From an uncultured Candidatus Saccharibacteria bacterium (lineage in GTDB: Bacteria; Patescibacteriota; WWE3; 9FT-COMBO-53-11): a stretch of 64,000 nucleotides of DNA. Each line of letters opens with the position of its first letter. Positions within the stretch are counted from its first letter, which is position 1. Location: the NCBI GenBank assembly GCA_964348395.1, contig CAYGCK010000001.1:21018-85017 (forward strand), read 5' to 3'. The notes below the pieces were generated by a model. It had not been told where the DNA came from. It ran no database searches and saw only the letters and a list, made by a program, of their open reading frames with translations. The translations under genes were made by a program, and so were the position numbers. Positions 38,055 to 55,258 of the stretch are shown one piece after another.

Positions 38055-38330
38055 TTACAGGATTCTAAACTTAATCTCCTCCACCGCGCGAGCGGGAAGC
38101 TGCTCGTTTATCACCTTCTTGAGTTCTCTTGCTTTCAAAAAAAGCTCTTGTGAGTGTGTGGGAGAGGGGGAAGCTAAGACGAGTCTGCCGTCTTTGAACG
38201 AGACCATTTCTGCCCACTTTGGAAGTATTCTTTTGCAGATGGCTTCTACCTTAAGAGCCAGAGCGACTCCTCTTATGGGGCTTCTGCGAAGCGACGTGTC
38301 CAGGGTATCTTTGAGCGGCTCGAATGTCAT
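38055..38330 (-). CDS. DUF721 (DciA-like) small protein
   Basis: W-x-E ... DGRLVLASPSPTHSQELFLKARELKKVIN fits the DUF721 pattern; 4-nt overlap with the preceding ATPase ORF. Confidence 0.45.
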   Translation of the reverse strand: MTFEPLKDTLDTSLRRSPIRGVALALKVEAICKRILPKWAEMVSFKDGRLVLASPSPTHSQELFLKARELKKVINEQLPARAVEEIKFRIL

Positions 38331-40357
38331 TTTTTAGGGCTTTCCTCGGGAGGAGTCGGAGGAGCTGGTGGTTTTGGCGGTTTTGGTTCCCCTCTTTCCT
38401 CCGTCGGTAACCCCCGCTCTTGTGCCTCTTGCTCGAGTTTCTCTTTGATAGCCAGGATTTCCTTGGGTGAAGAGGTTGCTAAGGGATGTTCGTCTGCTGA
38501 GGCGACGACCTGCATGGCGACGTGGTTTGGGCCGGCGAAGAAAAGACCTTCCCCGACGTTGGCTGACAAAAGGAGATGTTTCTCCCCTTCTGATAAGTAG
38601 AAGACCTTGGCTATCTCGTCTATCGCCGCAGGGTGCTGCTTTAGAAGAATTTGAATCGAGGAGTTTGTGACTATCGCCTTACCGTAATCCGAGCGCAAGA
38701 AATCGGCGACGTCTTGGGTGATGGTTGTTAAGCCCAGGTAATACTTGCGAGCGCGTTTGGCAATTGAGTACATAAAGGTCGCAGAGTCGGGGTGTTGCAT
38801 CAGATACCAAGCCTCGTCCACGATCAAAATTCTCTTTTTTAGTTCTCGCCGGATTCTATTCCAAATAAAGTCCAAAATTATATACATCGCGACCGGCCTA
38901 ACCTTCTCCTCCAGGTCTCGGGTGGAGAAAACGGTAAAGGTGTTCTTGATATCCACCGTTGACGGTTGGTCGAAAATACCCGCCAAGGATCCGGTGACAT
39001 ACTGCTCCAGCCGGTCGGCCAGGGGCTTACCTTCCTCTGATGCCTTTAGAACCTCGTAAAGGTCGCTCATTACAGGAGCGGGGTTGCTGTGAGTCGCAGG
39101 ATCCTGGGTAATCCCTTTCTTTGCGTAGGTTTCCAAGAGCGCTCGGTCCAGCAACGCGTCTTCCGAGGGGGAGAGGCTTCCCATCACAATCTTGAAAAGC
39201 GTGTGAAGCGAGAGGATTTTAAGGGCGAGTTCGTTCGCCCCCTCCTCGTAGGTTCCGGACAAGTCAAAAGGATTTATCTTGGCCGGGGAGGTTGGCGAGA
39301 AGGTGATGAAGTCTCCCCCAATGGCGCCGGCCAACTGCTCGTACTCTTTCTCAGGGTCGATTACCATGATTTCCGTCCCAAACATCAAGGAGCGCACCGC
39401 CTCGAGCTTAACCATATAGGATTTGCCGGCCCCGGACTTGGCAAAGACGACCGAGTTGGCGTTCTCGAGCGAGAACCGGTCGAAGATTATGAGGGAGCCG
39501 TTGTGCTCGTTAATACCGTAAAGAATTCCTTCGTTTGCGGTAAGCTCCGAGGAGGTTAGAGGAAAGGTGGTCGCAAGAGAGGTCGTGTCCATGTTTCGCA
39601 TTATCTTGATTTTGTCTTGACAGGTCGGGATGGTCGACTGGAAGGCCTCCTCCATACGAAGCGTCGTGTGCTTGGAGAGAAGAAGAAGCGAACCCAAGGT
39701 TGACTCAACTTTTTTGGTCACCGCTTCCAATTCTTCCAAGGAATCAGCGGCCACTGTTATGTAGAAGGAGAATTGGAAGAAGCGTTCGGTCCCTTTGACA
39801 AGCTGCTCTTGGAGGGTTTTCGCGTCCTCCAAGGCGGCCTCGACCGCCGGATCCACAACCCGTCCCGTCTTTTCCGACTCCTTTATGGTAGCCTCAAGCT
39901 CGGCTATTTTTCTCCTAAGATCGCTCAAAACCCCTCGGGACTCAACCGGGTAATAGAACATGGAGATGGTTAGGGTATGCGGGAAATTGATGAGTGGGGA
40001 GAGCCAGTTTGCTCCGACAAATCTGGGGTAGCCGGAGACGAATATGGTGCGCACAAATGTCTCTCCGATTTTAAGGTGGTTGAAGTCGACGTCCAAGGAC
40101 GGGGGCGCAATAATATCTTGAACCGTAACCTGGCCGGCGGCTATGGTTTGAGCCAACTCGTCCATGCTTCGGACTCCCACCCCGCCGGTGGGCTGCACGG
40201 CCGGCGTTGGGGAAGCCGGAGGCAAGGACGGGGACTGGGGCGCTGCTGGCGGCGGGGTCTGGGGCGGGACCGCGGCTCCTCCCGCTGCAACTTGAGGAGC
40301 GGGCGGCGCTCCTTCGGGCATTTGGTTTTGTGGGTTTTGTGGTGTTTGAAACTCCAC
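38327..40357 (-). CDS. VirB4/TrbE/CagE-family type IV secretion ATPase, C-terminal ATPase part
   Basis: Walker A VVFAKSGAGKSYMV and Walker B RILIVDEAWYLM. GTG start 2 nt after the upstream stop, with GGAGG 9 nt upstream. About 60-aa Pro/Ala/Gln-rich N-terminal linker. Confidence 0.75.
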   Translation of the reverse strand: MEFQTPQNPQNQMPEGAPPAPQVAAGGAAVPPQTPPPAAPQSPSLPPASPTPAVQPTGGVGVRSMDELAQTIAAGQVTVQDIIAPPSLDVDFNHLKIGETFVRTIFVSGYPRFVGANWLSPLINFPHTLTISMFYYPVESRGVLSDLRRKIAELEATIKESEKTGRVVDPAVEAALEDAKTLQEQLVKGTERFFQFSFYITVAADSLEELEAVTKKVESTLGSLLLLSKHTTLRMEEAFQSTIPTCQDKIKIMRNMDTTSLATTFPLTSSELTANEGILYGINEHNGSLIIFDRFSLENANSVVFAKSGAGKSYMVKLEAVRSLMFGTEIMVIDPEKEYEQLAGAIGGDFITFSPTSPAKINPFDLSGTYEEGANELALKILSLHTLFKIVMGSLSPSEDALLDRALLETYAKKGITQDPATHSNPAPVMSDLYEVLKASEEGKPLADRLEQYVTGSLAGIFDQPSTVDIKNTFTVFSTRDLEEKVRPVAMYIILDFIWNRIRRELKKRILIVDEAWYLMQHPDSATFMYSIAKRARKYYLGLTTITQDVADFLRSDYGKAIVTNSSIQILLKQHPAAIDEIAKVFYLSEGEKHLLLSANVGEGLFFAGPNHVAMQVVASADEHPLATSSPKEILAIKEKLEQEAQERGLPTEERGEPKPPKPPAPPTPPEESPKK

Positions 40358-40359
40358 GA

Positions 40360-41076
40360 CTATTGGCCTCCTTCGACCGCCGGTTGAACAAACGTAGAGG
40401 TGTAGTTCCCGGCTCCTCCTGCAATATGTTGCACCCTCGCCTGCTCTGGATTATATATCTCGTAGAAAAGTTCGATCAGCTCTGGAGTTGTGAGTTGACG
40501 CGCCTTGATCCCTAAACGCTCCAGCTGTTTTGTGACGTGGTCTCGCTTGGGTTCAAGATCGGTTTTTGCCTGTTCTATGACCTGGGATTTATTGACCCGC
40601 GGCGCTTTGGGTTTTCGGCCAAACAGGAAATCCAAAATTCCCGGTTTTGGCAACGTCACCGCTCCGTAGTAGGGTATGGCGATATAGAACCTCTTGTCCA
40701 AGACTTCACCCTTTTGAACCAAAGACACGATGAACTCCTTGTAGGAGTCTATCCTTTCTCTGAGGTATGGGTTGGCTTGGGAAGCGGTGCCTTGGGCTTG
40801 CTCGTCGACCCACCGCAGGTAGTTTGATATATCAAGCTTTCGCGAGCGAATGACTATCTGTAAAGGGAAAGACAGTGAGTTTAGCATAGAGGAGTAGGCC
40901 GCGATCATCGAATCCTGCTCTTTTTCCGAAAGAAGATCGAAGTTGACAGAGGTCGCCTCCAAGACCAGGGCAGCTCCCCCGTTTTTAAGGATTACCAAAT
41001 CCTCGTGTATGTCGAGGATGTCGAGGTGTTCTTGGGTCGAGGCTTGTTTTGGTGTTTGCGGTTTTCCTAAGGCCAT
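40360..41076 (-). CDS. VirB4 N-terminal-domain-like protein (split from the ATPase ORF)
   Basis: GAALVLEATSVNFDLLSEKEQDSMIAAYSSMLNSLSFPLQIVIRS resembles the N-terminal CagE/TrbE/VirB4 region. TAATG overlap with the upstream gene. Confidence 0.5.
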   Translation of the reverse strand: MALGKPQTPKQASTQEHLDILDIHEDLVILKNGGAALVLEATSVNFDLLSEKEQDSMIAAYSSMLNSLSFPLQIVIRSRKLDISNYLRWVDEQAQGTASQANPYLRERIDSYKEFIVSLVQKGEVLDKRFYIAIPYYGAVTLPKPGILDFLFGRKPKAPRVNKSQVIEQAKTDLEPKRDHVTKQLERLGIKARQLTTPELIELFYEIYNPEQARVQHIAGGAGNYTSTFVQPAVEGGQ

Positions 41077-42530
41077 TATCCTTTGGGTTTGATCTCCAAC
41101 TCCTCTACTTTCTCTCCTGTAAGCTCAAGTTTTATTGTATCAAAGGGTTGGGGAGCCTTCGGTATCTCTAAAGTGTAAGTTCCATTGGGCAAGGAGGCGG
41201 TGGCGAACTTCCCAAGCTCGTTGGTTCGCGTCGCTCGAACCACATTTCCTTTGGCGTCTTTTATTACGACGAGGGTCTGGGACAACACCCCGCCTCCTGA
41301 GTCGTGTACGACTCCCTCTATGGCGTTTGCCTGCTCCCCAGTTTTGGGCGCAGGTTTTTTGTCCACTTTGGGGGCAACCTTTTTTACCGTCGGCAAGGGA
41401 GACGGCGGAGGAGGTGGCGGCGGAGCTGAGGGCTCCTCAACCTTCTCCTCCTTAGCCGGTTCGGGTTTTGGTTGGGGTGGGGGCGGTGGAGGAGCTTTGC
41501 CCTCCTCTTTTATGGTGACCTCCTCGGGAGGTGGAAGCGGTATCTCCTTGGGGGGTGGGGTGGGTGGAGGCTCGGGTTTTGCAGGCGGCGCCTCGGGCGC
41601 CGGCGGAGCCGGCTCGGGCTCCTGTGCTACTGGTTGGATAGGCGTGGGGGGGAGCTGCGGAGCCCCTGGGAGTTCGGGCTCAAGAATTCGTTCCCTCGCC
41701 GGGGCATAGACCGCCTCTCCCGATATAGCAATCGGGGTTAGACGCCTACCGACCCTGACGTTTTTTCGGGTTGTGAAGTAGCTTGCCGCCTCTCCGCGCT
41801 GGACCTTGTAGACCTTCTCTGCTGCCCAGTTTATCGGCGAGGCCAAGGACGGTCTTTTCTGGATTTTCTGTACCTCGATAAAGCGAAGCTCGGGCAAAGT
41901 GGGCGCCGGCGGTGCGGGCTTCTCCTCTGGGAGGAGGGGGGCTTCGGGGGGTTTGACGGCTTCTTTGGGAGGAGCTCCGGGGGTTGGAGGCGGTGTGGGT
42001 AAAGCAGGAGGTGCTTTGGGAGCGGTGATCTGCCGCGCCAAGACATTTATGGACTGAAGATACTGCTTCTCCTCCAGATCCAAAGGGCTAATTTCCCCTT
42101 CCTTCTCGCGGACCGCCTCAAGGTAGGTCTGCAACCGCCGCTCCGCTTCCTCTTTGGAGACTCCGGGCGCCGTCTCGGCGGCGATTTTGGGGATTTCCAG
42201 GGTTAAAAACTCGGGAGGTTCCTTGCTTTGCACCCAGACTCGGCGGGTCGGCGCGTAGACCGCTCTCAAAAACGACATCAACCATTGGTCGAGAGGTTGG
42301 TCTTGAACCGGAACAAAGGCCAGACCGACGCCGATAAGGAGAGCGCCTATTGAGAGAAGTAGCCGTATGGGAAGGAATAACCCAGAGGAAAAAATTGCGA
42401 AAGCTAGGACTCCGGCTATTGCCAGAAAGACAAACTGGCGGATAGTAAAGTCGCCTATGAGCTTGAACTGGACCCCAAAAACCTCCTGCGGGACCGGGTG
42501 TTGTTTTCGTGCTTGCGGTTCTTCGGGCAT
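41076..42530 (-). CDS. VirB3/PrgI-like 2-TM protein with long Pro-rich spacer and C-terminal beta-sandwich (CarboxypepD_reg/Cna-B-like) domain
   Basis: N-terminal FGVQFKLIGDFTIRQFVFLAIAGVLAFAIF plus a second TM; about 250 aa of PxxP repeats; C-terminal GVVHDSGGGVLSQTLVVIKDAKGNVVRATRTNELGKFATASLPNGTYTLEI. Confidence 0.4.
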   Translation of the reverse strand: MPEEPQARKQHPVPQEVFGVQFKLIGDFTIRQFVFLAIAGVLAFAIFSSGLFLPIRLLLSIGALLIGVGLAFVPVQDQPLDQWLMSFLRAVYAPTRRVWVQSKEPPEFLTLEIPKIAAETAPGVSKEEAERRLQTYLEAVREKEGEISPLDLEEKQYLQSINVLARQITAPKAPPALPTPPPTPGAPPKEAVKPPEAPLLPEEKPAPPAPTLPELRFIEVQKIQKRPSLASPINWAAEKVYKVQRGEAASYFTTRKNVRVGRRLTPIAISGEAVYAPARERILEPELPGAPQLPPTPIQPVAQEPEPAPPAPEAPPAKPEPPPTPPPKEIPLPPPEEVTIKEEGKAPPPPPPQPKPEPAKEEKVEEPSAPPPPPPPSPLPTVKKVAPKVDKKPAPKTGEQANAIEGVVHDSGGGVLSQTLVVIKDAKGNVVRATRTNELGKFATASLPNGTYTLEIPKAPQPFDTIKLELTGEKVEELEIKPKG

Positions 42531-42589
42531 ACCCTAACAAAAGCGTATCAAATTCCAGGTTCGCTCTGGAAACGCCCTATTGCCAAGAA

Positions 42590-42618
42590 CACCACCTCGT
42601 GCTATCCTATAGTTAAGC
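42590..42618 (+). promoter_or_regulatory. candidate promoter TTGCCA-N17-TATCCT
   Basis: Precedes SD AAAGGAGGAAG and ATG 42663. Confidence 0.4.
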
Positions 42619-42662
42619 ACCTATCCAGATAAATAAATCCTGACGAAAGGAGGAAGTATCCA

Positions 42663-43109
42663 ATGTTCGTGATCGACTTTATGTCCCGAGCATGGCCTTA
42701 CCCGGCTTTGGCTCTGGCACTCGCCGCGATTGTGGCCTTCGCGCTGGCGCACCGCCCCTTCCGGCAAGGCGTTTGGTCGCTGATCGAGCGATTCGCCGGT
42801 TGGTTGCAGACCAACACCCCTAAAGCAGGGGGTATGGTTTGGACTCTCGGCGGCAAGGGACTGGGAGGACTGGCTAAGATAGTAGTCTGGGTCCTCTCCA
42901 AAGCCGGAGTTGTGATCCTGCTTCTCTTTCTCCTAGGCATCCTTGGGATTGCTTGGCAGATAGGGAACTTCGGTTTTCAGGTGGGGGTCCAGTACGAAGG
43001 AGACGCATTCACGACCTTCTTCAAGTGGTCTGCTTTAGCGTTTGCTCTGCTCCTGGGAGGTATAGTCTTGATCCCTCTCTTTGCGACGCTAAAGAAGCTG
43101 GTGAGCTAG
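42663..43109 (+). CDS. membrane protein (4 TM), unknown function, embedded in the T4SS-like island on the opposite strand
   Basis: Good SD; 148 aa. Confidence 0.45.
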   Translation: MFVIDFMSRAWPYPALALALAAIVAFALAHRPFRQGVWSLIERFAGWLQTNTPKAGGMVWTLGGKGLGGLAKIVVWVLSKAGVVILLLFLLGILGIAWQIGNFGFQVGVQYEGDAFTTFFKWSALAFALLLGGIVLIPLFATLKKLVS

Positions 43110-43129
43110 AGAGTGTGGGAGGTGCAACG

Positions 43130-43177
43130 GCCCTGGGTTTACGTCTTTTTAAGACGAGCCCGGGGCTTACTTTTTGC
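43130..43177 (+). terminator. compound hairpin followed by T-run (terminator between convergent genes)
   Basis: Outer stem GCCCTGGG / CCCGGGGC enclosing CGTCTT-TTT-AAGACG, then TTACTTTTTG. Confidence 0.4.
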
Positions 43178-44408
43178 CGAACATACCCTTAATATCTAGG
43201 GCGTCTTCGACCATTGATGGGGCTTTGAAGGCGGCGGCGATCATTATTAAAGCCAGTACTCCCCCTATAACTCCTTGCGCTCCGAAAACCCCGCCGGCTA
43301 AGTCCCCGTAAGTTCCGCTTATTACGTTTTGTATCCTTTCTGTCGCGCTGGCGGCAGTGCCGACTGCTAACCCTACACCCAGGTAAAGGAAGAACAAGAC
43401 TACCGGGAATACCAAAGTCTTAGCGGTAACGTTTTTAAAGAAGTTTGTTATCGATCCCTCCTGACCGGGTAAAGAGCCAAAGAGGAGAAGTATCGGGGAG
43501 AAAACGGTGTAGATAAGGATGTAGCCGTAAGCTATTAAGACTCTTATGAAGGTCAACCCCAAAAGTACCACGGCCGCGACAGCAAAAATTGCCAGAAGAA
43601 CCAGCGATGAAAGCGCGCTTTGCACCTCGGCCAAACCTTCGAGCCCTCCTAAGAAAACTCCGGTTATCATAGCAGGAGCGGGAGAAAGAGACGCTGCTAT
43701 CGAGCCAGCTCCACCCACAAGGTCAGCGGTTATAGTGCCAAAGGCCTCGGAAATGGCCGTGAGAACTAGATTACTAGTGAAAACCGCGCCGACGTCGATG
43801 ATAAGAGCGATAATAGGGTACGAGAAGGTTATGAGAACCAATCCCAGCAGTATTTTGGGAAGAGCATTGGTGAAAGTTACGACGACTCTGGGAGAAATTT
43901 CCTTTTGCAGGATAATCATAAGGCCGATCACGACCACCACTATCACAAAAAGCCCGTACGCCACGTTTCTCATCCCGCTCCAAACCTCTCGAATGGGGGT
44001 GAGAGCTCCCTGTCCCAAAGTTTCCTGAGCTCTTACTGGGGTATTAAGGAGGTTATCGGCGAGCTCTCCTCGCACGTACTCGCCCAAATCCACAGGCGGA
44101 AAAGTATAGGCCAGTCCCCCCATCCGACCGACAGCCGCCACCAGACCTTGGTCCCAATCCCCACGAACCATCTTATTGATATCCCCGATACTAACCTCGT
44201 CGAAATCTTCCCCAACAGTGGTATAGGAAACGAAGTTCATAGCGGATACGCCGGCGGCGCGGACGGTGCAGTTTATATTAGTAATACACTTAGCTTTTTC
44301 CCACAGGTCGTCAAAAGGCCAAAGGTCAATGGCGTGTGCCGGAGCGGCTTTAAAGCCAAAGAGGGCGAGAGTTATTAAAGGTATCAGGAGAAGTTTAAGC
44401 TTCTTCAC
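43167..44408 (-). CDS. VirB6/TrbL-like polytopic membrane protein with signal peptide and periplasmic N-domain
   Basis: GTG start; signal peptide; about 110-aa exported domain; 6-7 TM helices. Assignment rests on topology and context, not on a motif. Confidence 0.35.
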   Translation of the reverse strand: MKKLKLLLIPLITLALFGFKAAPAHAIDLWPFDDLWEKAKCITNINCTVRAAGVSAMNFVSYTTVGEDFDEVSIGDINKMVRGDWDQGLVAAVGRMGGLAYTFPPVDLGEYVRGELADNLLNTPVRAQETLGQGALTPIREVWSGMRNVAYGLFVIVVVVIGLMIILQKEISPRVVVTFTNALPKILLGLVLITFSYPIIALIIDVGAVFTSNLVLTAISEAFGTITADLVGGAGSIAASLSPAPAMITGVFLGGLEGLAEVQSALSSLVLLAIFAVAAVVLLGLTFIRVLIAYGYILIYTVFSPILLLFGSLPGQEGSITNFFKNVTAKTLVFPVVLFFLYLGVGLAVGTAASATERIQNVISGTYGDLAGGVFGAQGVIGGVLALIMIAAAFKAPSMVEDALDIKGMFGKK

Positions 44409-44481
44409 TACGGAACCATTGTATCAAATTAATTTAGAAACTAATTCAACAAATTGATTCGAGAATGCTACCATTTATCCG

Positions 44482-46422
44482 ATGGCGGTTTTCCAGAACA
44501 TCTTTAGCTTCTTTATGCCCGGTAGGCGCCCCGCCTCTCCTGATGGAGGCGGAGGTCCCACGGATCCGGCTGCTATGCAGCGCACGTTGGGCACGATCGA
44601 AGCAACGCTTAGGGAATATGATGTTTCGGAGGGGATAATCGCAAATGTTAGACAAGATTTTATAACGGCTTTTAACGCGGGGACGGCTCCGGTCACTTCT
44701 CTACCTGGTGTGCCCGGCGCAGCGATTTCTAACCTCCGCGTCAATCTTTACAACCTCGCCACTGCCCCGAGTAAGGTCACGGATTCGTGGCAGAAGACTC
44801 TAAGGAATACTCTCAACCAAAACCTTATCACCAGACACTTGGAGGACAAGCTCGTTGTCGAACAGGTATTGGGCGCTCTAGGTGGGGAGCTTGTCGGCGC
44901 CGATATCAGAAACGCCTTTTCCGCTTGGGTTTACCAGACGGATAGCAGATCAGACCGTATAGAGAAAGCAATGGAGATTGGGGAAAAGCTCGAAACCTCC
45001 CTCGATGCAAGAAGATCCGCGCTTCAAGAGCAATTGGAGGCCGAGTTGAGTCGATTATCCGACCCCGCCCATGTGCGCGTTCGCCTCGAGGAACTTAAAA
45101 ATCAAGGGGTAAAGACGATTAATGGAGTAGATGTGGAACAGGCTTATCGTGGAGCTCTTTTTGCCGAGTTAAAACTAAAAGACCATCAAAGCAACTACCA
45201 AAAAGCGCTTAGCGACGCTGCCGCCTTTGAATCTAGAGGAGATACAAAGCGAGCCGCATCGATGCGGGCTAACGCGGAGTTTATCCAAAAAAATTTGAAC
45301 AAGGATTTAGGCCGATGGCAGTCGACGTCCAAAGGCTACAGACAGACCTGGATCGGCGAAGCCGCCTCCTCGATACAGGCTCGAGCAGCTGCTCTTGAAG
45401 CAAGCTACAAACAACTATCCACTTATCTGAGAAACAGGAACATCCGTTATGGCGTTCACAACTTTTTAACAACCCTGCGCAAAGATGGGGTCGGTGGAGT
45501 GTTTCGGGAGTATGCTTGGAAGAGCTTCACAAAGAGATTGGGAAGCCTCTACCCGCCAAACGCTATAAGGGCGTTTCTGAAAAAAACCCCCATACTTAAG
45601 CCTTTGCAGATAGTGAACCAATGGAGAGCTCAGCTGACCTCGTTAGCCCTAAAAGGAATCACGCAGTTAGCTCGGAAACTGGGGTTGGGGAGGATCTTAG
45701 GTGCTGCGCTTGGCTCTGCGCTTCCCGGTGCTGGAACTGCCTTAGGGGCCGTTTTAGGAGCTGTTATTCAGTTCGCTGGAGAAGTGGTTATTGAAAAGCT
45801 GGGCGGGGTGCTTAAACTTGTGGGGTATACAATTGCGGGGGCTATGGGGTGTGTAATGCTCGTTTTGGTAGGGTTTGTGATTCTTGTTTCCATTATCCTA
45901 AGCGACTATTCTGCCGCCGAGGGGATTGACTGTGATCAGACCGCAACCGCCACCGACGCGTGCGTCGCCTCCAAAGCCGCGGTCAAAAACATTGCGGACA
46001 ACTGGGGCGTAGGGCCCGGGAACCACGTGGAGGAGTGCTACAACGACGTAATCGCCAAATCCAAGGAGGTTGGGGTGGACCCTCGAATCTCTATGACGAT
46101 CTGGCTAAACGAAAGTAACGCCTCAAACTACGAGCTTTATAAGCGGTTGGGTGAACCGCCTCAGGATTTTGGTATCCCCGCTCGCGCCGGCGACGGATTC
46201 ACCGCCCAGATAACCACCTTTCTCAACTTCTACAAAAGCAGCCATCAAACTTATGCGTCGTGCTATCAGGGTTACAGCGACGCGGAGGGTTTCTTTAGAG
46301 CGTTTTGTACCGCGGGGCGGGAAGAGTTTGGGGTGGGACAGTGCCCTAACCTCACCGGAGAAGGTGAGGATTGTGTGGATATCTATACGGGGGTTTATAG
46401 TTCGATTAACAGGTGCCAGTAA
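44482..46422 (+). CDS. large coiled-coil membrane protein with Cys-rich extracytoplasmic C-terminal domain (possible SLT-like lytic transglycosylase motif)
   Basis: No signal peptide; about 430 aa helical; 2 TM helices near 440-480. The C-terminus AKSKEVGVDPRISMTIWLNESNAS resembles the SLT catalytic E-S region, weakly. Confidence 0.45.
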   Translation: MAVFQNIFSFFMPGRRPASPDGGGGPTDPAAMQRTLGTIEATLREYDVSEGIIANVRQDFITAFNAGTAPVTSLPGVPGAAISNLRVNLYNLATAPSKVTDSWQKTLRNTLNQNLITRHLEDKLVVEQVLGALGGELVGADIRNAFSAWVYQTDSRSDRIEKAMEIGEKLETSLDARRSALQEQLEAELSRLSDPAHVRVRLEELKNQGVKTINGVDVEQAYRGALFAELKLKDHQSNYQKALSDAAAFESRGDTKRAASMRANAEFIQKNLNKDLGRWQSTSKGYRQTWIGEAASSIQARAAALEASYKQLSTYLRNRNIRYGVHNFLTTLRKDGVGGVFREYAWKSFTKRLGSLYPPNAIRAFLKKTPILKPLQIVNQWRAQLTSLALKGITQLARKLGLGRILGAALGSALPGAGTALGAVLGAVIQFAGEVVIEKLGGVLKLVGYTIAGAMGCVMLVLVGFVILVSIILSDYSAAEGIDCDQTATATDACVASKAAVKNIADNWGVGPGNHVEECYNDVIAKSKEVGVDPRISMTIWLNESNASNYELYKRLGEPPQDFGIPARAGDGFTAQITTFLNFYKSSHQTYASCYQGYSDAEGFFRAFCTAGREEFGVGQCPNLTGEGEDCVDIYTGVYSSINRCQ

Positions 46423-46425
46423 GGG

Positions 46426-47112
46426 TCAGTCGATCAAAAAATAGTAGCTGTATTCGTTTAAGTCAACTCCGATTGCTTCCAAATCCCCAAGAGCTCTGTT
46501 TTTAGCCGCTTCTACCTCCGCTCCCAGAGCGTTTTCTCCAAGAGTTAGGCGGATTCGGAATGCCTCTTTTTCAAAGTTGTAGACGATAACATACTCGTTG
46601 GTTTCTATAGGGATGCTCGCGTACCAAGGATAGGTTTTATAGAAATCTTTTTCGGCCTCGGCGACCAAGAAGTCGTCCGCCGCCTGCTGTCGGGCTTCCT
46701 CTTCTATTTGTTCCTTGGCTTTGTCCGTCGTTTTAAAAGAAAATGAATAGATCTCCTTCTGCTTGTAAAGGACGGCTACGGTGTAGGTTGTTGCGCTCTC
46801 CAATCCCTGGTCGATGGTTACCTGGAGGGTATTTGCGGAACTCCAGGTGGCGGAGGAGTCCGTCTCTGGATTGATTACCACAGCGACGTCGCTTTGGACG
46901 GCCCCATCCAACTCTTCTTGGAACGTTATCTCCAACGGGAGAATACCGAGTACCCCTTCTTCGTTGTCCTGGGGAATTGTTGAGGCGACAGCTGGCATAA
47001 GCTCGGGCTCTCTTATTAACAAGATCCCTACGATGAGCATAGCAATCAAACCCACTATCAAAATAATTGCGGTTATGGTTATAGTCCTTGGGGAGATATC
47101 TTCTAATTTCAT
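46426..47112 (-). CDS. N-terminally anchored hypothetical protein, last gene of the pilin operon
   Basis: ATGA overlap with the CHAP gene; single TM. Confidence 0.45.
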   Translation of the reverse strand: MKLEDISPRTITITAIILIVGLIAMLIVGILLIREPELMPAVASTIPQDNEEGVLGILPLEITFQEELDGAVQSDVAVVINPETDSSATWSSANTLQVTIDQGLESATTYTVAVLYKQKEIYSFSFKTTDKAKEQIEEEARQQAADDFLVAEAEKDFYKTYPWYASIPIETNEYVIVYNFEKEAFRIRLTLGENALGAEVEAAKNRALGDLEAIGVDLNEYSYYFLID

Positions 47113-48995: not shown

Positions 48996-49010
48996 TGGAA
49001 AGAAATTTAT

Positions 49011-49379
49011 CTAGCGGGCGATGGATGTCAGGACCAGATTTACGATAAATATGGCCGCAATAATAAGAACGAGTCCAAGAATTGAGTAGGTGATGGTTGC
49101 TTTGGCGGTCGAGAGAGATTTTTCGTCACCTCCGGACATCATGTATTGGATTCCACCGTAGATGAGAAACAGTACCGCCACTGTTCCGGCAAGACCGAGA
49201 AGGACATCCACAATTCGCGCGATTATGCAAAATATGCCAGATATCTCTTCGGTTGAGCACGCGGTGAGGGATATTCCAAGGTAATCCTCTATAAAGTCAA
49301 AGGCACTAGCCGCAAAAACCGGCTGAGCCAGACCTAATGAGGCAATCGCTGCTGCAGATGAGCTCAATATTATTTTCAT
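49011..49379 (-). CDS. VirB2/TrbC-like pilin paralog 1
   Basis: SD AAGGAGG 7 nt upstream of ATG 49379. Signal peptide, then two hydrophobic helices separated by IYGGIQYMMSGGDEKS. Confidence 0.55.
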   Translation of the reverse strand: MKIILSSSAAAIASLGLAQPVFAASAFDFIEDYLGISLTACSTEEISGIFCIIARIVDVLLGLAGTVAVLFLIYGGIQYMMSGGDEKSLSTAKATITYSILGLVLIIAAIFIVNLVLTSIAR

Positions 49380-49442
49380 CGTTATCCTCCTTTCAACGTT
49401 AAACACTTTAAGACCAAGCGCTGGGGCAATCCTTACCTAAAT

Positions 49443-49796
49443 CTAGACTGCACAGGCCGGTATATTTGGTGTGATTGTACGTAAGACAACGTTGACGATC
49501 AACCAGGCCCCAAGAACAATTACAAGCCCGATAACCGCGCTAGTAATTCGGCCTCGTGCCTGCTCAACCCCAATCTTATCTCCGCCGGAGGTCATGTACT
49601 GGATACCACCCATAATGAGAATAATGACGGCGATTGTTCCGGCTATTCCGAAAAGGATGTTAGTGATAGCGGAAGCAGCGTCGCAGATGGAATCCCACCG
49701 CAACGGGTTTTTCCCTGCCTGCGCGAGAACCGGTGTAGCTGACAACGCTAACGCACTGATTGTTGCTGCTGTCGTTTTGACTTTGTTTCTAAGCAC
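49443..49796 (-). CDS. VirB2/TrbC-like pilin paralog 2
   Basis: GTG start with GGAGGTGA SD; signal peptide; IMGGIQYMTSGGDKIG between two hydrophobic helices. Confidence 0.55.
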   Translation of the reverse strand: MLRNKVKTTAATISALALSATPVLAQAGKNPLRWDSICDAASAITNILFGIAGTIAVIILIMGGIQYMTSGGDKIGVEQARGRITSAVIGLVIVLGAWLIVNVVLRTITPNIPACAV

Positions 49797-49811
49797 TTAT
49801 TTCACCTCCTC

Positions 49812-50429
49812 TCAAAACGGAAAGATGTCCGGACTAATACCTATAATCCTAATTCCGATTATATGGAGTATTACAGTGGATATCAAGAGAAATACTAAGC
49901 CGGATATTGCGGCCGTGATTTGGGCTCTTGCCTTTTGGAGTTTGTCCGGGTCACCCGTGGATGTTGCAACCCCGTACCCACCGACGACGATTAAAAGGAT
50001 GGAAAGTAAGGTTCCTATACCGATACCAACCCTAAGAAGCACGGTGGCTAGAGCCGTGGGGTTGGTGGGGAGCGTGATGAATCCTATGTCGATCTCGTCC
50101 TTGCCCTCTGGTAATTTGATTTCCACTTCCCCGGCCTCTTCTCCCTCTACATTGTTGGTTGGAGTCGTTTCCGGCTCTGGAGTCGGGGTGGGCGTTGGTG
50201 TTCCATCGTCGCAGGTGTAAGTTCCTGATGCGCAGGTGGATGGGGATCTGGGTAAACATGGGTTGGGAGAGGGAGTGCAGGTGCTGGGCTGAACATCACA
50301 ATAATTATCCGCGCGTAACTGACAGTTGTAGGTCGCCGCGTAAGTTGTGGATAGTGAGGAGGCCGATAATCCAAGGAAAGTTAAGGTTATGAGCAAACCG
50401 AAAAATATCTGGGCAAGTGATTTCTTCAT
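49812..50429 (-). CDS. VirB2/TrbC-like pilin paralog 3 with Cys-rich / PT-rich N-terminal extension
   Basis: Signal peptide MKKSLAQIFFGLLITLTFLGL; Cys-rich segment and TPTPTPTPEPETTPT linker. C-terminal LLSILLIVVGGYGVATSTGDPDK ... hydrophobic pair. The upstream part of the ORF-track ORF is rejected because it overlaps the divergent gene. Confidence 0.5.
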   Translation of the reverse strand: MKKSLAQIFFGLLITLTFLGLSASSLSTTYAATYNCQLRADNYCDVQPSTCTPSPNPCLPRSPSTCASGTYTCDDGTPTPTPTPEPETTPTNNVEGEEAGEVEIKLPEGKDEIDIGFITLPTNPTALATVLLRVGIGIGTLLSILLIVVGGYGVATSTGDPDKLQKARAQITAAISGLVFLLISTVILHIIGIRIIGISPDIFPF

Positions 50430-50508
50430 TCTCAAGCTGATAATAGCAGAACTCACGGGAAATACGCTAGAGGATAAAGCGGCCGGCCCCTTGCTACAAT
50501 ATAAAGGT
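50430..50508. promoter_or_regulatory. divergent promoter region; extended -10 (TGCTACAAT at 50492-50500) places the transcription start at or next to ATG 50509 (leaderless)
   Basis: TGn-TACAAT ends 8 nt before the plus-strand ATG. A minus-strand TATTAT lies 10 nt before pilin-3 ATG, with no SD. Confidence 0.3.
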
Positions 50509-52323
50509 ATGGTTCCAAAACTGCCCCAAGTTCGCAAACTCACTGTTTTTGGTTTAGTTCTCGCTCTCCTTGGCGTAGTAATAAGCTTCCAACTTACCTC
50601 GGCGGATGAGCTCGACGACGTAACCAACGAGCTTTCCCAGCAGCAACAACAGCTTTCCGATCTTGAAGAAAGAAAAGAACAGCTGGCGCGGGATATCTCC
50701 TCGGCCTCTGCATCTTTATCCCAGGTTTCTGCCGAGCTTTCACAAGCAGAAGAAGAGTTATCGGCGATAGAAAGTGAGCTCGCCAAGCGTGAGGCGACTC
50801 TAAAGCAGTGGGAGGAAGACCGCAACTTCCTTATAAGAGTCCTCTACAAACAAAGCCGCGTATCCCCTGTCGAGGTGGTTTTTTCCTCCGACAATCTGGT
50901 TGAATCGACCAAAAACCTACAGTACTACGATGACAACCTAGATCTTCTTAAAGACCGGATAGGATTACTGGTCGACGAGATAGGGGTTTTCCAAGCCAAC
51001 AAAGCCACCGCCCGGCAGTTGCGTGATGATCTTGCCGCTCTTAGGGATCAATATCAATACCGTCTTGCTTCAAGCCAGCGCCAGTTTTCTTCAACTTCCT
51101 CGCAATTAGCTTCCGTCAAGTCTTCGATCCAAAACCTAACCGCGCAGCAGGAACAGTTGATACTGGCAAAGTTTGCTGCTGGTGGCGGGAGTGAGACGGT
51201 TGGGGATAGCCCACCTCTATCCGAGCAATTACCTGACCCATCGTTCTCCCCCGCTTATATGGTGGCCGCCTACGGGTATCCCCATCGAATTGGGATGAGC
51301 CAGTACGGGGCCTATGGTCGAGCGAAGAAAAACCAAGATTATAAATCAATTCTGGCTGCTTATTACAAAGTTTCTGCCTCAAGTATCCAGACTTACCGGG
51401 TTGGAGGAACTATCCACGTAAAGGGTTGTAGCGTAGGCCCACCGCCTTGGTACCCCGGAGGAGGAGGTTGGAGTCAGAGTACTTGTCAAAGCAAAGGGTA
51501 TAAGTGGTACGACGCCACTTTAAGCATGGAAACATATATTAAGGGTCTTGGAGAAATGCCACTAAGTTGGGGAAGCGCTGCGATGGAGGCATATAAAGCC
51601 CAGGCGGTTGCTGGACGTAGTTATGCCTGGGCCTATGCGGATGGAAATGGAGGGACTATTTGCCCATCAACTTACTGTCAGGTCTATTTGGGTTATAACA
51701 AAGGGAGTTACTGGGAACAGGCCGTGAACGCTACACCGAACCAAGTGATTGTACAGGGCGGAGCCCCACTTAAGGCGTTCTATCACTCCACCGCCGGTGG
51801 TTACACCATCTCTACGCAGCAATGGACTAGCTACTGGAACTACATCGATGGCATTAAAGACTTTCACTCCGACGGACAAGCATACGAGCAGGTCGCTAGT
51901 GCTCCTTGGTACCACACTGGATGGGGTTCTCGTACCGGTAGTGGTTATAATCCTTGGATGACGCAGGAAGAGTTTGCCGATATCTTCAATGCAATTCTGC
52001 TTTGTCGCAAGTCGAACACCCAGCCCTACGAACTCGCTTCCGACTGTCCGTATATGCAATACCTCTCTCCGATAGACAAAGGCGGTTGGGATATGCCCAC
52101 AGTTCGAAACAACGTTTCGGGTGTTACTCCGATAACGTCTATCTCGGCGGTTGTTCCCACATTTCCATCAGGAGTCCCGGCCAACACCTCGACTGTCCTC
52201 GTTTATGGGTCACATGGAACTTACGCCTTTAGCGCCCGTTACTTTAGGGATATGTTCAATTTACGCTCCCGCGGGACTCTCCAAATTCCTACCTACCGCT
52301 TCGATTTCACTGTTAAGCAGTAG
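50509..52323 (+). CDS. SpoIID/LytB-family lytic transglycosylase with N-terminal signal anchor and long coiled coil
   Basis: ETYIKGLGEMPLSWGSAAMEAYKAQAVAGRSYA ... TYCQVYLGY ... FYHSTAGGYT match the SpoIID domain. N-terminal about 230 aa is coiled coil with a QQQQ stretch. Confidence 0.75.
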   Translation: MVPKLPQVRKLTVFGLVLALLGVVISFQLTSADELDDVTNELSQQQQQLSDLEERKEQLARDISSASASLSQVSAELSQAEEELSAIESELAKREATLKQWEEDRNFLIRVLYKQSRVSPVEVVFSSDNLVESTKNLQYYDDNLDLLKDRIGLLVDEIGVFQANKATARQLRDDLAALRDQYQYRLASSQRQFSSTSSQLASVKSSIQNLTAQQEQLILAKFAAGGGSETVGDSPPLSEQLPDPSFSPAYMVAAYGYPHRIGMSQYGAYGRAKKNQDYKSILAAYYKVSASSIQTYRVGGTIHVKGCSVGPPPWYPGGGGWSQSTCQSKGYKWYDATLSMETYIKGLGEMPLSWGSAAMEAYKAQAVAGRSYAWAYADGNGGTICPSTYCQVYLGYNKGSYWEQAVNATPNQVIVQGGAPLKAFYHSTAGGYTISTQQWTSYWNYIDGIKDFHSDGQAYEQVASAPWYHTGWGSRTGSGYNPWMTQEEFADIFNAILLCRKSNTQPYELASDCPYMQYLSPIDKGGWDMPTVRNNVSGVTPITSISAVVPTFPSGVPANTSTVLVYGSHGTYAFSARYFRDMFNLRSRGTLQIPTYRFDFTVKQ

Positions 52324-52346
52324 GTTATTCTGCTATCATAATCCTG

Positions 52347-54341
52347 ATGCCTCAGGAGTTAGAGGTTAAAGTCTCCAAACTAGAAGGCTCCCCTGCCGCC
52401 GAGCGCGGAAAGACTGTTCAGGTTTTCGAGTTCATCCCCCCTCAAGGAGAGGATTTTCCGGAAGAACGAGGACAACTTTTTGCCGTTGTGGAGGTGAATT
52501 TGCCCACCGAGCGGCAAGAGGTGGATTTGACCGAGGACGCGGCTTTGGCCGCCAAACTCGTTTGGGATACCCTAGTCGGAACCTATTATGATCCATCGGA
52601 AGAAACAGCGCTAAAGGCGCTGGAGGATGCAACCGAAACCGCCCGCGAGAAGCTTAAAGATTTCGCCGAGGATAGCGACCTTAACCTCATAGCTGTCGCC
52701 ATTTTAGGAAACGTCGCTTATTTCTCCCGCGTCGGCGGCGGCGCACTTTATCTTAGGCGAGGCGCGGAGGTTAGAGATTTAGCTCAAGAGGAGGAAGCCG
52801 TCGATATCGGTTCCGAGATTTTAGAGGGAGACGATGTTTTAGCCGTGGGGTCCCCGGTTTTTGGCAAAAACTTCACCGCCGCCAACCTCCCTCAAACGGA
52901 ATTTCTGGTTAAACAATTCGAGCAAGGGGTTAAGGTCCCGGGTTTTTCCGCTCTCCTTTTAATGCTCAAACCCTCAAGGGAATCACGCGAGGAGGCGGTA
53001 AAAAATGGGGTATCCCGCTCCCCACTCGCAAAGATTTTCAAAAGAGCAAAGAAACTGCCCGCGGATCTGCCTAAAGTTAAGCTCGGCGCCTTGTCCCCGT
53101 CAAAACTAGGTAAAGGGGTTTCGCGCTTCTTGAGCGACCGCGTTTCTCGAGGCAAAAAGCTAGCGGAGGCGAGAAAGGCGGCGCCTGAGGAGAGAGAGGG
53201 CGGGGAAGAGCTTAAGGCGCTCAAACCGCCTAAGCTTAAAAAGCTTCCCCGGCTGCCATTGTCGCGAATCATTGCCGTTTTGGTGATTCTTCTTGTCGTT
53301 TCCATCGGGTTCACCGTATGGAGGCAAGCGCAAAAAGCCAAGGCGGAGGAGTTTGAACGCATCATCACCGAAACCACGCAAAGTTTGGACGAGGCGGCAG
53401 GTCTGGTGGGGTTGTCAAACGAGCGGGCGCTTGAGCTCGTCGAAGAAGCGCGTGCCGATTTGGAGCGGGCGAGGGATATAGACCCCCGCTCTGGCGAGAT
53501 AGACCCCTTGTTGTCGCGCGCCGAGGAACTCTACAACGCCATAGAGAAAATTACTCCGGTTGGGGAGGAGCATATAGTATACGATTTGGGACTCCAGGTC
53601 GAGGGGGCTCAGGGTGTAGCCATCTCCGGTTCTGGAACCACACTTTATGTTGCAGATTCAACAAGCGGATCGGTATTTTCGATTGTTATCCCTTCGGGGG
53701 AGGGGGAGCTTCCGCAGGTTTCGGCTATCGCAGAGGGAACTATACAAGGTATCCGCGAGATCGGCTCCGAAGGCGGATTCTTATATCTACTTTCCGAAGA
53801 TAAACTCTACCGGTTTAACTTGTCGACCAAGGCGGTCGACGAGCCCGTACCTTTCGAGCGCTATAGCCTCTCCGTCTCCTTGGATACATACTCTGGGAAC
53901 GTCTATCTTTTAGTTCCCGAGGAGGATCAGATCTACAAGTTCTGGAATCTCGAGACGGGATATTCTAAGGCGGTTTCTTGGGTTAAGGCGGTCGTGGACT
54001 TGGGGTACTTTACGGATATGGCGGTGGATGGGGATATCTGGCTCTCCGCCTCCGGTGGAGAGATTATGCGTCTGACCAAGGGTGAGGGCACCGCTTTCGC
54101 GATTTCCAATCTGTCGACACCTTTTTCTAGTGTGAACAAAATATTTACCCGCCCCAATCTAATCCGCCTTTACATTCTTGACACAGGAAACCAGAGGGTC
54201 GTGGTTTTGGACAAAGGAGGGAATTTTGTCCGGCAGGTCAAGGGCGACGGATTGGAGGGAGCTACAGACCTTTGGGTTTCGGAGGACGAGAAAACACTCT
54301 ACATACTCGTAGGTAGCAAGATTTACCGCATAGGTTTGTAG
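52347..54341 (+). CDS. membrane-anchored protein with C-terminal beta-propeller-like repeats
   Basis: Central TM (IIAVLVILLVVSIGF). C-terminal repeated LYV/LYI ... D motifs suggest NHL/YVTN-like blades. The N-domain is unassigned. Confidence 0.45.
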   Translation: MPQELEVKVSKLEGSPAAERGKTVQVFEFIPPQGEDFPEERGQLFAVVEVNLPTERQEVDLTEDAALAAKLVWDTLVGTYYDPSEETALKALEDATETAREKLKDFAEDSDLNLIAVAILGNVAYFSRVGGGALYLRRGAEVRDLAQEEEAVDIGSEILEGDDVLAVGSPVFGKNFTAANLPQTEFLVKQFEQGVKVPGFSALLLMLKPSRESREEAVKNGVSRSPLAKIFKRAKKLPADLPKVKLGALSPSKLGKGVSRFLSDRVSRGKKLAEARKAAPEEREGGEELKALKPPKLKKLPRLPLSRIIAVLVILLVVSIGFTVWRQAQKAKAEEFERIITETTQSLDEAAGLVGLSNERALELVEEARADLERARDIDPRSGEIDPLLSRAEELYNAIEKITPVGEEHIVYDLGLQVEGAQGVAISGSGTTLYVADSTSGSVFSIVIPSGEGELPQVSAIAEGTIQGIREIGSEGGFLYLLSEDKLYRFNLSTKAVDEPVPFERYSLSVSLDTYSGNVYLLVPEEDQIYKFWNLETGYSKAVSWVKAVVDLGYFTDMAVDGDIWLSASGGEIMRLTKGEGTAFAISNLSTPFSSVNKIFTRPNLIRLYILDTGNQRVVVLDKGGNFVRQVKGDGLEGATDLWVSEDEKTLYILVGSKIYRIGL

Positions 54342-54414: not shown

Positions 54415-54506
54415 TGGCGGAGGGTGTGGGATTCGAACCCACGCGGCGGCTGTTAACCACCAACGGTTTAGCAAACCGTCGCCTTAAACCACTCGGCCAA
54501 CCCTCC
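54415..54506 (-). tRNA. tRNA-Ser (GCT)
   Basis: Reverse complement folds as a type II tRNA: acceptor GGAGGGT, anticodon loop TTGCTAA, long variable arm, T-arm GTGGG-TTCGAAT-CCCAC, CCA. Confidence 0.85.
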
Positions 54507-54557
54507 GTACCCTTTATTTTACCAGCAGGGCGCTTGCTTTTTGCTAAACTACCCTTG

Positions 54558-55055
54558 ATGGAGCGGCAGGGGGAAAAGGAAAACATTCTTTTGGAGTGGG
54601 AATCCCCAGAGAGAGCGTTCACAAAAAAGGGAACATCCTACTTTCGCAACCTCTTCACACTTTTGGCGATTTTGGCCGCGGTCGCTATCTTCTTTAAAGA
54701 GTTTCTTCTCGCCGGAGTTTTGGCGGCTCTCGGTTTCGTGAAGTGGGCGCTCGGGACGACCCCTCCCAAGGAATCCAAGCATTCCGTTTCCAACCTCGGC
54801 ATAAGGACCCACGGGCACCAGTATACCTGGGACCAGCTCAAGGACTTCTGGTTCGACGAGATTGCTGGTCAGCGAGCGCTTCTTGTGGATACAAAGAGCC
54901 TCTATCCCGGAAGGCTCTTTCTTATTCTGGATGGGGCTAAGGAGGGAGAGGTCAAGGAGACGCTTAGGCAATACCTCCCTTACCGCCAAAAGGTCAAAGA
55001 AGATTTTCTGGAGAAGATCTCCGTCGGTATCGCCCGTAAGTTTCCATTAGAGTAG
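54558..55055 (+). CDS. hypothetical membrane protein
   Basis: Internal ATG chosen because the upstream part of the ORF-track ORF is antisense to tRNA-Ser; 2 TM helices. Confidence 0.4.
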   Translation: MERQGEKENILLEWESPERAFTKKGTSYFRNLFTLLAILAAVAIFFKEFLLAGVLAALGFVKWALGTTPPKESKHSVSNLGIRTHGHQYTWDQLKDFWFDEIAGQRALLVDTKSLYPGRLFLILDGAKEGEVKETLRQYLPYRQKVKEDFLEKISVGIARKFPLE

Positions 55056-55087
55056 GTTTTCCGTTCTCGGGTTATAATTAAATGTTA

Positions 55088-55164
55088 GTCCTCGTAGCTC
55101 AACTGGACAGAGCGTCAGCTTGCGGAGCTGAAGGTTGGGTGTTCGAGTCACCCCGGGGACACCA
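55088..55164 (+). tRNA. tRNA-Arg (anticodon GCG as read)
   Basis: Acceptor GTCCTCG/CGGGGAC, D-arm GCTC-AACTGGACA-GAGC, anticodon stem TCAGC/GCTGA with loop TTGCGGA, T-arm GGGTG-TTCGAGT-CACCC, CCA. Near-identical D-arm to the tRNA-Arg(CCG) downstream. Confidence 0.75.
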
Positions 55165-55168
55165 TTTA

Positions 55169-55258
55169 GGAAGGGTGGCAGAGTGGACGATTGCGCACGC
55201 CTTGAGAGCGTGAGACCCCGCAAGGGGTTCGGGGGTTCGAATCCCTCCCCTTCCGCCA
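55169..55258 (+). tRNA. tRNA-Ser (TGA)
   Basis: Type II tRNA: acceptor GGAAGGG, anticodon loop CTTGAGA, long variable arm, CCA. Confidence 0.85.

Follow-up and report, generated by a model that had tools for sequence, protein, structure and literature searches.

The stretch of DNA analysed here (64 kb, hereafter the window) carries, at positions 38327-50429, an origin-proximal, relaxase-free type IV secretion system (T4SS)/pilus cluster that is a core chromosomal feature of ultrasmall Patescibacteria (the candidate phyla radiation, CPR). We estimate a probability of roughly 0.8 for what we consider the best explanation of this locus, namely that it derives from a conjugation machine of monoderm bacteria (mating-pair formation class FATA, MPF-FATA) that lost its linkage to relaxase and coupling protein and gained VirB2-type pilins. 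The organism is a WWE3-like Patescibacterium, and the database label 'Candidatus Saccharibacteria bacterium' is probably imprecise, given that both VirB4 and synteny place it nearest to WWE3 metagenome-assembled genomes (MAGs). Systems of this kind have already been described in papers published from 2020 to 2025, such that the locus is a well-preserved additional example and the kind of machine is not new; a first-pass annotation of the same DNA overrated its novelty. That annotation had proposed a T4SS- or conjugative-pilus-like block spanning 38055-54341, and all of the components it named were recovered at or close to where it had placed them, most with scores above chance (Table 1).

Components of the secretion cluster

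Related loci were collected by a VirB4-based scan using one genome per species. This yielded 229 confirmed relatives, the best 80 of which were compared. Pfam scans covered the long open reading frames (ORFs) across the window, with a length floor of 150 amino acids outside the 30-60 kb region.

The VirB4-family ATPase matches NCBIfam model NF045971 (CD1110-type VirB4) over positions 179-733 of the 752 in the profile, at 391 bits (cutoff 325), and also matches Pfam P-loop_TraG (3e-27) and the VirB4 C-domain in PDB entry 4ag5 (1e-50). Its Walker A (AKSGAGKS) and Walker B (ILIVDEAW) motifs, read from the translation, are intact. This product corresponds to the C-terminal two thirds of a canonical VirB4, and its N- and C-terminal tails are rich in proline and alanine and disordered.

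The first-pass annotation had assigned all of 38327-41076 to one VirB4 gene. The ATPase is indeed present, but this interval is not a single ORF: it encodes VirB4 and, upstream, a TrsD-like protein of 238 amino acids. At the junction between the two genes, a TAG stop codon and two further bases are followed by a GTG start preceded by GAAGGAGG, and the reading frames differ. We conclude that two genes are present because of the stop, the frame change and the retention of the split in 75 of 76 related loci, where the TrsD-like and VirB4 proteins are likewise encoded by separate ORFs; together with the Shine-Dalgarno sequence ahead of the GTG, these features rule out the single-ORF alternative. 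The sole fusion is an 819-amino-acid ORF in an Amesbacteria locus (L064), whereas in two other loci (L074 and L076) a dnaN-dnaA-yidC-jag segment sits between the TrsD-like gene and virB4. Because the two are separated in the latter and fused in the former, the VirB4 N-domain and the ATPase seem to act as independent genes in this clade. The TrsD-like protein matches the NCBIfam TrsD/TraD model at 1e-9, which is under the curated cutoff, as well as the N-terminal positions of NCBIfam VirB4 models and Pfam TraC_F_IV (0.0011). Its homologue on a WWE3 CSP1-7-like contig (L084) carries PF26593, TraC-like. Jointly, the two genes would constitute one canonical VirB4.

The next gene upstream, described by the first-pass annotation as encoding a VirB3/PrgI-like protein with two transmembrane (TM) segments, was confirmed as such by a PrgI match above its gathering score. 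The protein is approximately 4-5 times the usual length, with N-terminal TM helices at residues 24-42 and 57-75 followed by a Pro-rich linker of about 300 amino acids and a C-terminal CarboxypepD_reg (prealbumin-like) domain (35.7 bits versus 32.3). The long form is common in the clade (median of about 467 amino acids in 59 loci), and the CarboxypepD_reg domain resides in the same ORF as PrgI in at least 24 of these 59. The architecture in L084 is identical.

The tandem VirB2/TrbC-like pilins proposed by the first-pass annotation were also found. Pilins 1 and 2 score above the gathering thresholds and pilin 3 falls below, but a signal peptide, two hydrophobic helices and a GG..Y..S.GD loop are common to all three. 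An alignment of the three has 18 invariant columns, and the identities of the other two to pilin 1 are 39% and 24%. Pilin 2 is the closest of the array to canonical pilins, and pilin 3 carries an N-terminal extension of about 90 amino acids that is rich in Cys, Pro and Thr. A homologue of pilin 3 occupies the equivalent position in another relative (L086). Of the sigma-70-like sites in the block, the best is TTGATA-17-TATAAT (11 of 12 positions; minus strand, 49886 to 49858), which falls within the 3' end of the pilin 3 gene, directly upstream of pilin 2. Because of this location, pilin 2 may be a separately and strongly expressed major pilin. Where the flank is long enough, related loci have pilin arrays about 9-10 kb upstream. 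Between the pilin array and the hydrolases, L084 has genes for DnaJ-domain and VWA-domain proteins (998-3158) that are absent from the window.

A polytopic membrane protein of 413 amino acids occupies the position where the first-pass annotation had called a VirB6/TrbL-like component. It has a signal/anchor sequence, an extracytoplasmic region of about 120 amino acids with two conserved Cys residues, and 5-6 TM helices. Pfam and NCBIfam gave zero matches to it, Pfam scans of 27 homologues yielded nothing relevant, and a precomputed PF19590 match on four of the homologues was not reproduced by a scan at E<=0.01. Likewise, PDB sequence searches with this protein and with the 646- and 628-amino-acid proteins described below returned nothing. 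Profile searches, which the first-pass annotation had put forward as a check, give matches above cutoffs for VirB4 and VirB2 models and none for VirB6 models. However, the earlier call finds agreement at the level of fold. In a Foldseek search with an AlphaFold2 model (pLDDT 74, pTM 0.70), the top PDB matches are chains of R388 TrwI/VirB6 (7o3v_F/G/J, 8rtd_L and 8rt9_F), followed by DotA. The TrwI matches have probabilities of 0.97-1.00, E values of 0.03-0.2 and TM-scores of 0.38-0.50. The gene is syntenic in 38 of the 80 loci, which helps the assignment; because the structural scores are borderline, we regard the predicted structure as indicating a probable VirB6 only.

Chromosomal position and inheritance

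The block is flanked by dnaN and a tRNA cluster, with dnaN 400 bp and dnaA 3.6 kb from the secretion genes. About 60 of the 80 loci likewise have dnaA, yidC, jag and dnaN as neighbours. Comparison with related MAGs, as the first-pass annotation had suggested, shows that the order VirB6-like, PrgI, TrsD, VirB4 beside dnaN/dnaA is kept in nearly all of the best 80, and L084 repeats the entire layout, including a Wzy_C gene beyond dnaA. The closest VirB4 relatives (the best 80 of 229, at 59-89% identity) all come from Patescibacteria MAGs, the closest being WWE3, and represent WWE3, Woyke-, Curtiss-, Ames-, Blackburn-, Shapiro- and Levybacteria; the clade placement of VirB4 is based on these nearest neighbours and not on a formal tree. 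Several of the related MAGs are evidently mislabelled as Gammaproteobacteria or Nanoarchaeia.

Among the best 80 loci, the identities of VirB4 and DnaA rise and fall together (Spearman 0.67). Median identities in the same loci are 66% for VirB4, 37% for DnaA, 35% for DnaN and 39% for YidC, and VirB4 appears to be under purifying selection that is unusually strong for a secretion ATPase. In GC content the block stays inside the range seen in the flanking DNA, with no compositional break. Because the adjacency to dnaN-dnaA is conserved and the VirB4 and DnaA identities co-vary, we conclude that the cluster is vertically inherited and is not an integrated conjugative element (ICE).

The first-pass annotation had reported that no VirD4, relaxase, VirB11 or integrase was visible, and the Pfam scans of the window's long ORFs agree. 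It had also considered that a relaxase or VirD4 might lie immediately outside the window; about 5 kb of sequence past the left edge yielded no relaxase, type IV coupling protein (T4CP), VirB11 or integrase. A strict Walker A pattern, run on ORFs of at least 100 amino acids and missing DnaA, has matches of plausible function in the window only in VirB4 and a UvrD-like helicase. A third match is in a 167-amino-acid minus-strand ORF (7943-8443) that is too short for a coupling protein. No flanking direct repeats were found around the block beyond the self-similarity of the tRNAs, and there is no tRNA-derived direct repeat at its opposite end. The earlier view that this is not a mobile conjugative element is upheld by the conserved dnaN/dnaA-side site, the VirB4-DnaA co-variation and the lack of integrase and att repeats.

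The minus-strand genes for the PrgI-like, TrsD-like, VirB4 and DciA proteins look like a single operon because they abut or overlap. For example, the PrgI and TrsD-like genes share base 41076, and the start of dciA overlaps the stop of virB4 as ATGA (38327-38330). The first-pass annotation had included 38055-38330 in the secretion island, but the gene at this location encodes DciA (Pfam DciA, 33.9 bits), which is not a part of the secretion system. Nevertheless, dciA appears to be translationally coupled to virB4 and co-transcribed with the PrgI-TrsD-VirB4 operon, and it follows VirB4 in the seven closest loci (tblastn). A second minus-strand unit runs from 50429 down to 46426 and comprises the genes for pilin 3, pilin 2, pilin 1, a CHAP hydrolase and a Big_5 protein. 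The VirB6-like gene and the gene for the 646-amino-acid hydrolase diverge from a 73-bp spacer, and 79 bp lie between the pilin operon and the divergently oriented SpoIID/propeller genes.

Table 1. Location, strand and basis of assignment of features in and around the secretion cluster (window coordinates)
Feature	Position	Strand	Basis
DciA, replicative helicase loader, non-T4SS	38055..38330	-	Pfam DciA 33.9 bits vs gathering score 24
VirB4-family T4SS ATPase	38327..40357	-	NF045971, P-loop_TraG, PDB 4ag5
TrsD-like protein, separately encoded VirB4 N-domain	40360..41076	-	TrsD/TraD model, synteny
Extended PrgI/VirB3-like protein	41076..42530	-	PrgI 39.4 bits vs gathering score 27
Small 3-TM membrane protein, 148 aa	42663..43109	+	Three hydrophobic segments
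VirB6-like polytopic membrane protein, 413 aa	43167..44408	-	AlphaFold2 model/Foldseek, synteny
Membrane-anchored wall hydrolase, 646 aa, VirB1-like in role	44482..46422	+	Domain architecture
Single-pass membrane protein, Ig-like Big_5 domain	46426..47112	-	Big_5 1.7e-8
Secreted CHAP wall hydrolase, 628 aa	47109..48995	-	Own CHAP match weak, E 0.0024
VirB2/TrbC-like pilin 1	49011..49406	-	T4SS_pilin 40.6 bits vs gathering score 26.6
VirB2/TrbC-like pilin 2	49443..49796	-	T4SS_pilin 46.2 and TrbC 43.7 bits, both above gathering scores
VirB2-like pilin 3	49812..50429	-	T4SS_pilin 6e-4, under gathering score
SpoIID/LytB protein, membrane-anchored, coiled-coil	50509..52323	+	TIGR02669 102.5 bits vs cutoff 83.3
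Bitopic beta-propeller-like protein, 664 aa	52347..54341	+	NHL/YVTN repeat matches, weak
Replication-origin gene set	33321..37922	dnaA (-); rnpA, yidD, yidC, jag, dnaN (+)	Pfam
tRNA cluster (Ser, Arg, Ser, Ser, Arg, Ser), far block boundary	54415..56372		ARAGORN, Rfam

Relation to known systems

A T4SS was first reported in Saccharibacteria by McLean et al. 2020 (PMC7427843). Wang et al. 2023 (PMC10633639) found that epibiotic growth requires the T4SS with its pilin array, comEC being dispensable, and described a cluster without recognizable coupling or relaxase proteins. In the survey by Quinonero-Coronel et al. 2025 (PMC12102498), VirB4 was present in 2,417 of 3,035 Patescibacteria genomes and formed a monophyletic clade nested in MPF-FATA. 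This survey also reported TrsD, PrgI, VirB6 and VirB2 arrays, the rarity of relaxases and the proximity to dnaA/dnaN. It shows the same architecture as our locus, in line with the first-pass proposal of a chromosomal T4SS-like pilus or contact apparatus as in reduced-genome episymbionts. A 2025 review considers patescibacterial T4SSs unique among those of monoderms as being essential and possibly pilus-making, and a 2026 preprint describes tubular structures, possibly T4SS pili, where parasite and host meet.

The locus shares with the Patescibacteria-clade T4SS, of which SEML1_0006-0019 of Southlakia epibionticum is the studied example, a VirB4 with separate TrsD-like protein, a PrgI/VirB3 component and a probable VirB6, tandem divergent VirB2-like pilins with peptidase/lysozyme genes nearby, and a chromosomal site by dnaA/dnaN in a cluster without relaxase or T4CP. 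It differs from Southlakia in its lineage (WWE3-like, not Saccharimonadia) and in having three pilins instead of six. As further differences, VirB6 here escapes Pfam and NCBIfam models and is recognised by fold and synteny only, PrgI carries the long Pro-rich extension and CarboxypepD_reg domain, the hydrolase set is lysozyme-like, CHAP and SpoIID, and dciA appears translationally coupled to virB4. The main text of PMC12102498 makes no mention of WWE3, CarboxypepD_reg, SpoIID or CHAP. VirB6 was found to be scarce in Microgenomatia, suggesting extreme divergence (PMC12102498), and our fold-level candidate helps fill this Microgenomatia-type gap.

With MPF-FATA systems (pCF10 Prg, pGO1 Trs and CTn2/CD1110-type ICEs), the locus has in common a CD1110-family VirB4, TrsD, PrgI, a probable VirB6-type channel protein, modular wall hydrolases (SLT, CHAP or M23-type domains) and the lack of an outer-membrane core. 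In contrast to these systems, it has no relaxase, T4CP, oriT or PrgB-type surface adhesin, does not reside on a mobile element, and includes VirB2-type pilins, which monoderm conjugative systems lack. Likenesses to the diderm VirB/D4 systems (MPF-T; R388 Trw and Agrobacterium VirB) are the TrbC-matching pilins, the probable VirB6 fold of the polytopic protein, for which TrwI is the top structural match, and the VirB3 and VirB4 homologues. However, VirB5, VirB7, VirB9, VirB10, VirB11 and VirD4 were undetected by family scans of the window, and the similarity of VirB4 to R388 TrwK is just 1e-4.

The patescibacterial T4SS is among the few machines known to be essential for an epibiotic lifestyle, in a radiation that by estimate accounts for about one quarter of the domain Bacteria. 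The locus offers a clean, complete example from a lineage without cultured members (WWE3-like) and no new principle. Three leads may be of use: a structure-supported VirB6 candidate in a lineage related to classes where hidden Markov model searches find VirB6 scarce, a conserved and greatly extended PrgI/VirB3, and an exchange of modular wall-hydrolase domains that can be mined for host-specificity signals.

Wall hydrolases and the SpoIID/propeller pair

Three exported wall-lytic enzymes had been proposed for this block, and each was borne out by a different line of evidence: SpoIID by a score above cutoff, CHAP through its homologues, and the 44482-46422 product by a lysozyme-like (GH23-fold) domain. 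The latter protein has a conserved helical N-module of about 400 amino acids, a Gly-zipper/TM region at residues 405-473, and, at residues 476-646, a Cys-rich C-terminal lysozyme-like domain with an invariant WLNES motif. Close homologues share this domain. However, residues 1-475 align with a 739-amino-acid WWE3 protein that ends in Peptidase_M23, and among 20 representatives of the family, eight have M23, two have Peptidase_C39_2, and the remainder are mostly without a recognised Pfam catalytic domain.

The CHAP hydrolase has a signal peptide, a conserved N-module of about 430 amino acids and a C-terminal CHAP domain whose Cys507, His580 and Asn598 are invariant. Homologues of its N-module carry CHAP (PF05257; seven), Peptidase_M23 (three) or Amidase_2 (one), and the orthologues in L084 and L086 end in M23. 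On both hydrolase scaffolds, catalytic domains are swapped among relatives. This swapping could be ordinary modular evolution of VirB1-type enzymes. A bolder idea, which we consider doubtful, is that the exchanged 'warheads' are directed at the host and matched to its peptidoglycan chemistry, opening the host wall for a VirB2 pilus that serves as a feeding conduit and is possibly guided by the PrgI tail. If this were true, the type of warhead would predict host range in uncultivated WWE3 and Microgenomatia.

The SpoIID protein, which also matches Pfam SpoIID (8e-13), has a lytic-transglycosylase domain. The protein encoded immediately downstream consists of an N-terminal cytoplasmic domain, a TM helix (residues 306-324) and a C-terminal beta-propeller-like domain. 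Scanning metagenomes for relatives of SpoIID yielded only two loci (L086 and L087), such that the link between SpoIID and the system is thinly sampled. The propeller gene directly follows SpoIID in both, and in L086 the pair divergently adjoins a three-pilin array, as it does in the window. Regarding the extent of the block that the first-pass annotation had drawn to 54341, the part at 38327-50429 holds, but the membership of 50509-54341 rests on adjacency in two relatives.

The strongest competing interpretation concerns this boundary. It holds that only 38327-50429 is the secretion system and that the SpoIID/propeller pair (50509-54341) is an unrelated module of wall growth or division. In favour of this separation, wall remodelling at the septum or during engulfment is a common role of SpoIID/LytB proteins, the pair is intact in L087, a short contig without visible pilin genes, and SpoIID goes unmentioned in the main text of the 2025 survey (PMC12102498). 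Yet just 79 bp separate the pilin 3 and SpoIID genes in the window, and the pair in L086 is again found divergently beside three pilins. We give the separation somewhat less than even odds and treat SpoIID as a probable member of the system.

Two smaller proteins in the block are of less certain standing. The 148-amino-acid 3-TM protein has no family match in Pfam or NCBIfam. L084 has a small membrane ORF in the same position, with zero sequence similarity between the two, and membership of this protein in the system is uncertain. The Big_5 protein has a TM helix at residues 15-33 and tblastn matches in three of the 80 loci, and a 4-nucleotide overlap joins the start of its gene to the stop of the CHAP gene. 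It is a possible candidate for a VirB8-type analogue.

Proposed function and direction of transport

By homology with characterised relatives of its parts, the derived conjugation machine would operate as follows. A hexameric VirB4 ATPase would pair with the separately encoded TrsD-like N-domain and dock at the membrane via the PrgI/VirB3-like and VirB6-fold proteins. ATP hydrolysis would drive the extraction of Sec-exported VirB2-like pilins, which would be polymerised into a conjugative-type pilus or tube. The lysozyme-like, CHAP and SpoIID enzymes would open peptidoglycan of the cell's own wall, the host's, or both. The apparatus would serve the epibiont-host interface and not plasmid transfer, on the basis of essentiality determined by published transposon sequencing (Tn-seq) in Southlakia epibionticum.

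Several points weigh against this interpretation. The VirB6 matches have borderline E values and modest TM-scores, and no VirB8-like component was recovered, since searches with the Big_5 and 148-amino-acid proteins gave no informative match. The SpoIID/propeller pair may function in growth of the cell wall instead of in secretion. Furthermore, a T4CP or relaxase could be encoded elsewhere in the genome, distant from the window; T4CP homologues are present in most Patescibacteria genomes, far from virB4 (PMC12102498). Finally, essentiality was established in Saccharibacteria, such that its extension to WWE3 would be by homology, and a pilus made by this system is putative in every Patescibacterium.

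The import of host macromolecules and the export of effectors are both live sub-hypotheses. In the former, the T4SS/pilus conduit would draw in host DNA, RNA, nucleotides or other macromolecules, as do archaeal Ced and Helicobacter ComB. Patescibacteria lack nucleotide biosynthesis, and published authors have proposed import because the T4SS is essential for growth while ComEC-dependent competence is dispensable. A 2026 preprint on feeding on host RNA and tube-like structures also points in this direction. VirB4 has a weak similarity to the CedB model (39.8 bits against a cutoff of 700; 2e-10) and the CedD model (19.6 bits against 600), but the CedB match reflects only the shared VirB4 fold. 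Moreover, the CedA, CedA1/A2 and ComB partner families were undetected in Pfam and NCBIfam scans of the cluster, the same scans show no nuclease or nucleic-acid-binding gene, and direct evidence of import is missing for all patescibacterial T4SSs. On balance, we view import as unlikely.

An exporter of protein effectors aimed at the host bacterium, with the polymorphic hydrolases as cargo or tip enzymes, is slightly less likely still. Neither hydrolase needs a T4SS for exit, since one carries a Sec-type signal peptide and the other is anchored in the membrane. PrgK, TraG and CwlT are modular VirB1-type proteins of monoderms. Such modularity in monoderm conjugative VirB1-type proteins is also documented in the 2025 survey (PMC12102498). 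In addition, no immunity-like gene was identified, and no T4CP for substrate recruitment.

That the block is instead an ICE or its decayed remnant beside the tRNA cluster, with leftover DNA-transfer machinery, is hardly credible: the best VirB4 model is built on conjugative-transposon ATPases (CD1110 family), tRNAs abut one end of the block and the system does derive from monoderm conjugation machinery, but about 60 of 80 loci across several candidate phyla share the position on the dnaN/dnaA side, VirB4 co-diverges with DnaA, its ATPase motifs are intact under apparently strong purifying selection, and no integrase, relaxase, T4CP, VirB11, flanking repeats or compositional break were seen in the window. 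Integration at the tRNA cluster specifically is ruled out by the lack of att-like repeats and of an integrase and by the conserved site.

Other features of the window

Cumulative GC skew bottoms out at about 28-30 kb, within a few kb of dnaA (33321-34733). Over the window as a whole, DnaA-box-like 9-mers are more frequent than expected (19 versus 7.8) without clustering near dnaA, and oriC was not located. A gene for a BpsA_C (branched-chain polyamine synthase-like) protein lies near the origin genes (29780-30760, minus strand).

The tRNA cluster at the far boundary of the block comprises four Ser isoacceptors and two Arg tRNAs. Some listed ORFs overlap these tRNAs, namely the start region of 54402-55055, the ORF 55047-55430 and the 5' end of a VanY ORF (55504-56373), and therefore the true gene starts lie further in. 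Similarly, an Hsp20 ORF as listed (12248-12799, plus strand) overlaps a tRNA-Cys (12284-12357), and its real start is probably downstream.

At the left edge, a truncated UvrD-like helicase (2-2320, minus strand; Walker A AGPGTGKT) runs off the start of the window and is not a relaxase. In another assembly of the region (L082), this stretch is called as a pair of genes, one with matches to UvrD_C and PDDEXK_1. The window is otherwise ordinary chromosome, with genes for aminoacyl-tRNA synthetases, GroEL, L25, dnaG and a NiFe hydrogenase operon. The latter (58169-62051, minus strand) encodes a large subunit, an Oxidored_q6 small subunit, an FAD/NAD-binding subunit and an Fe-S subunit, a layout that resembles group 3b hydrogenases within a reduced Patescibacteria genome.

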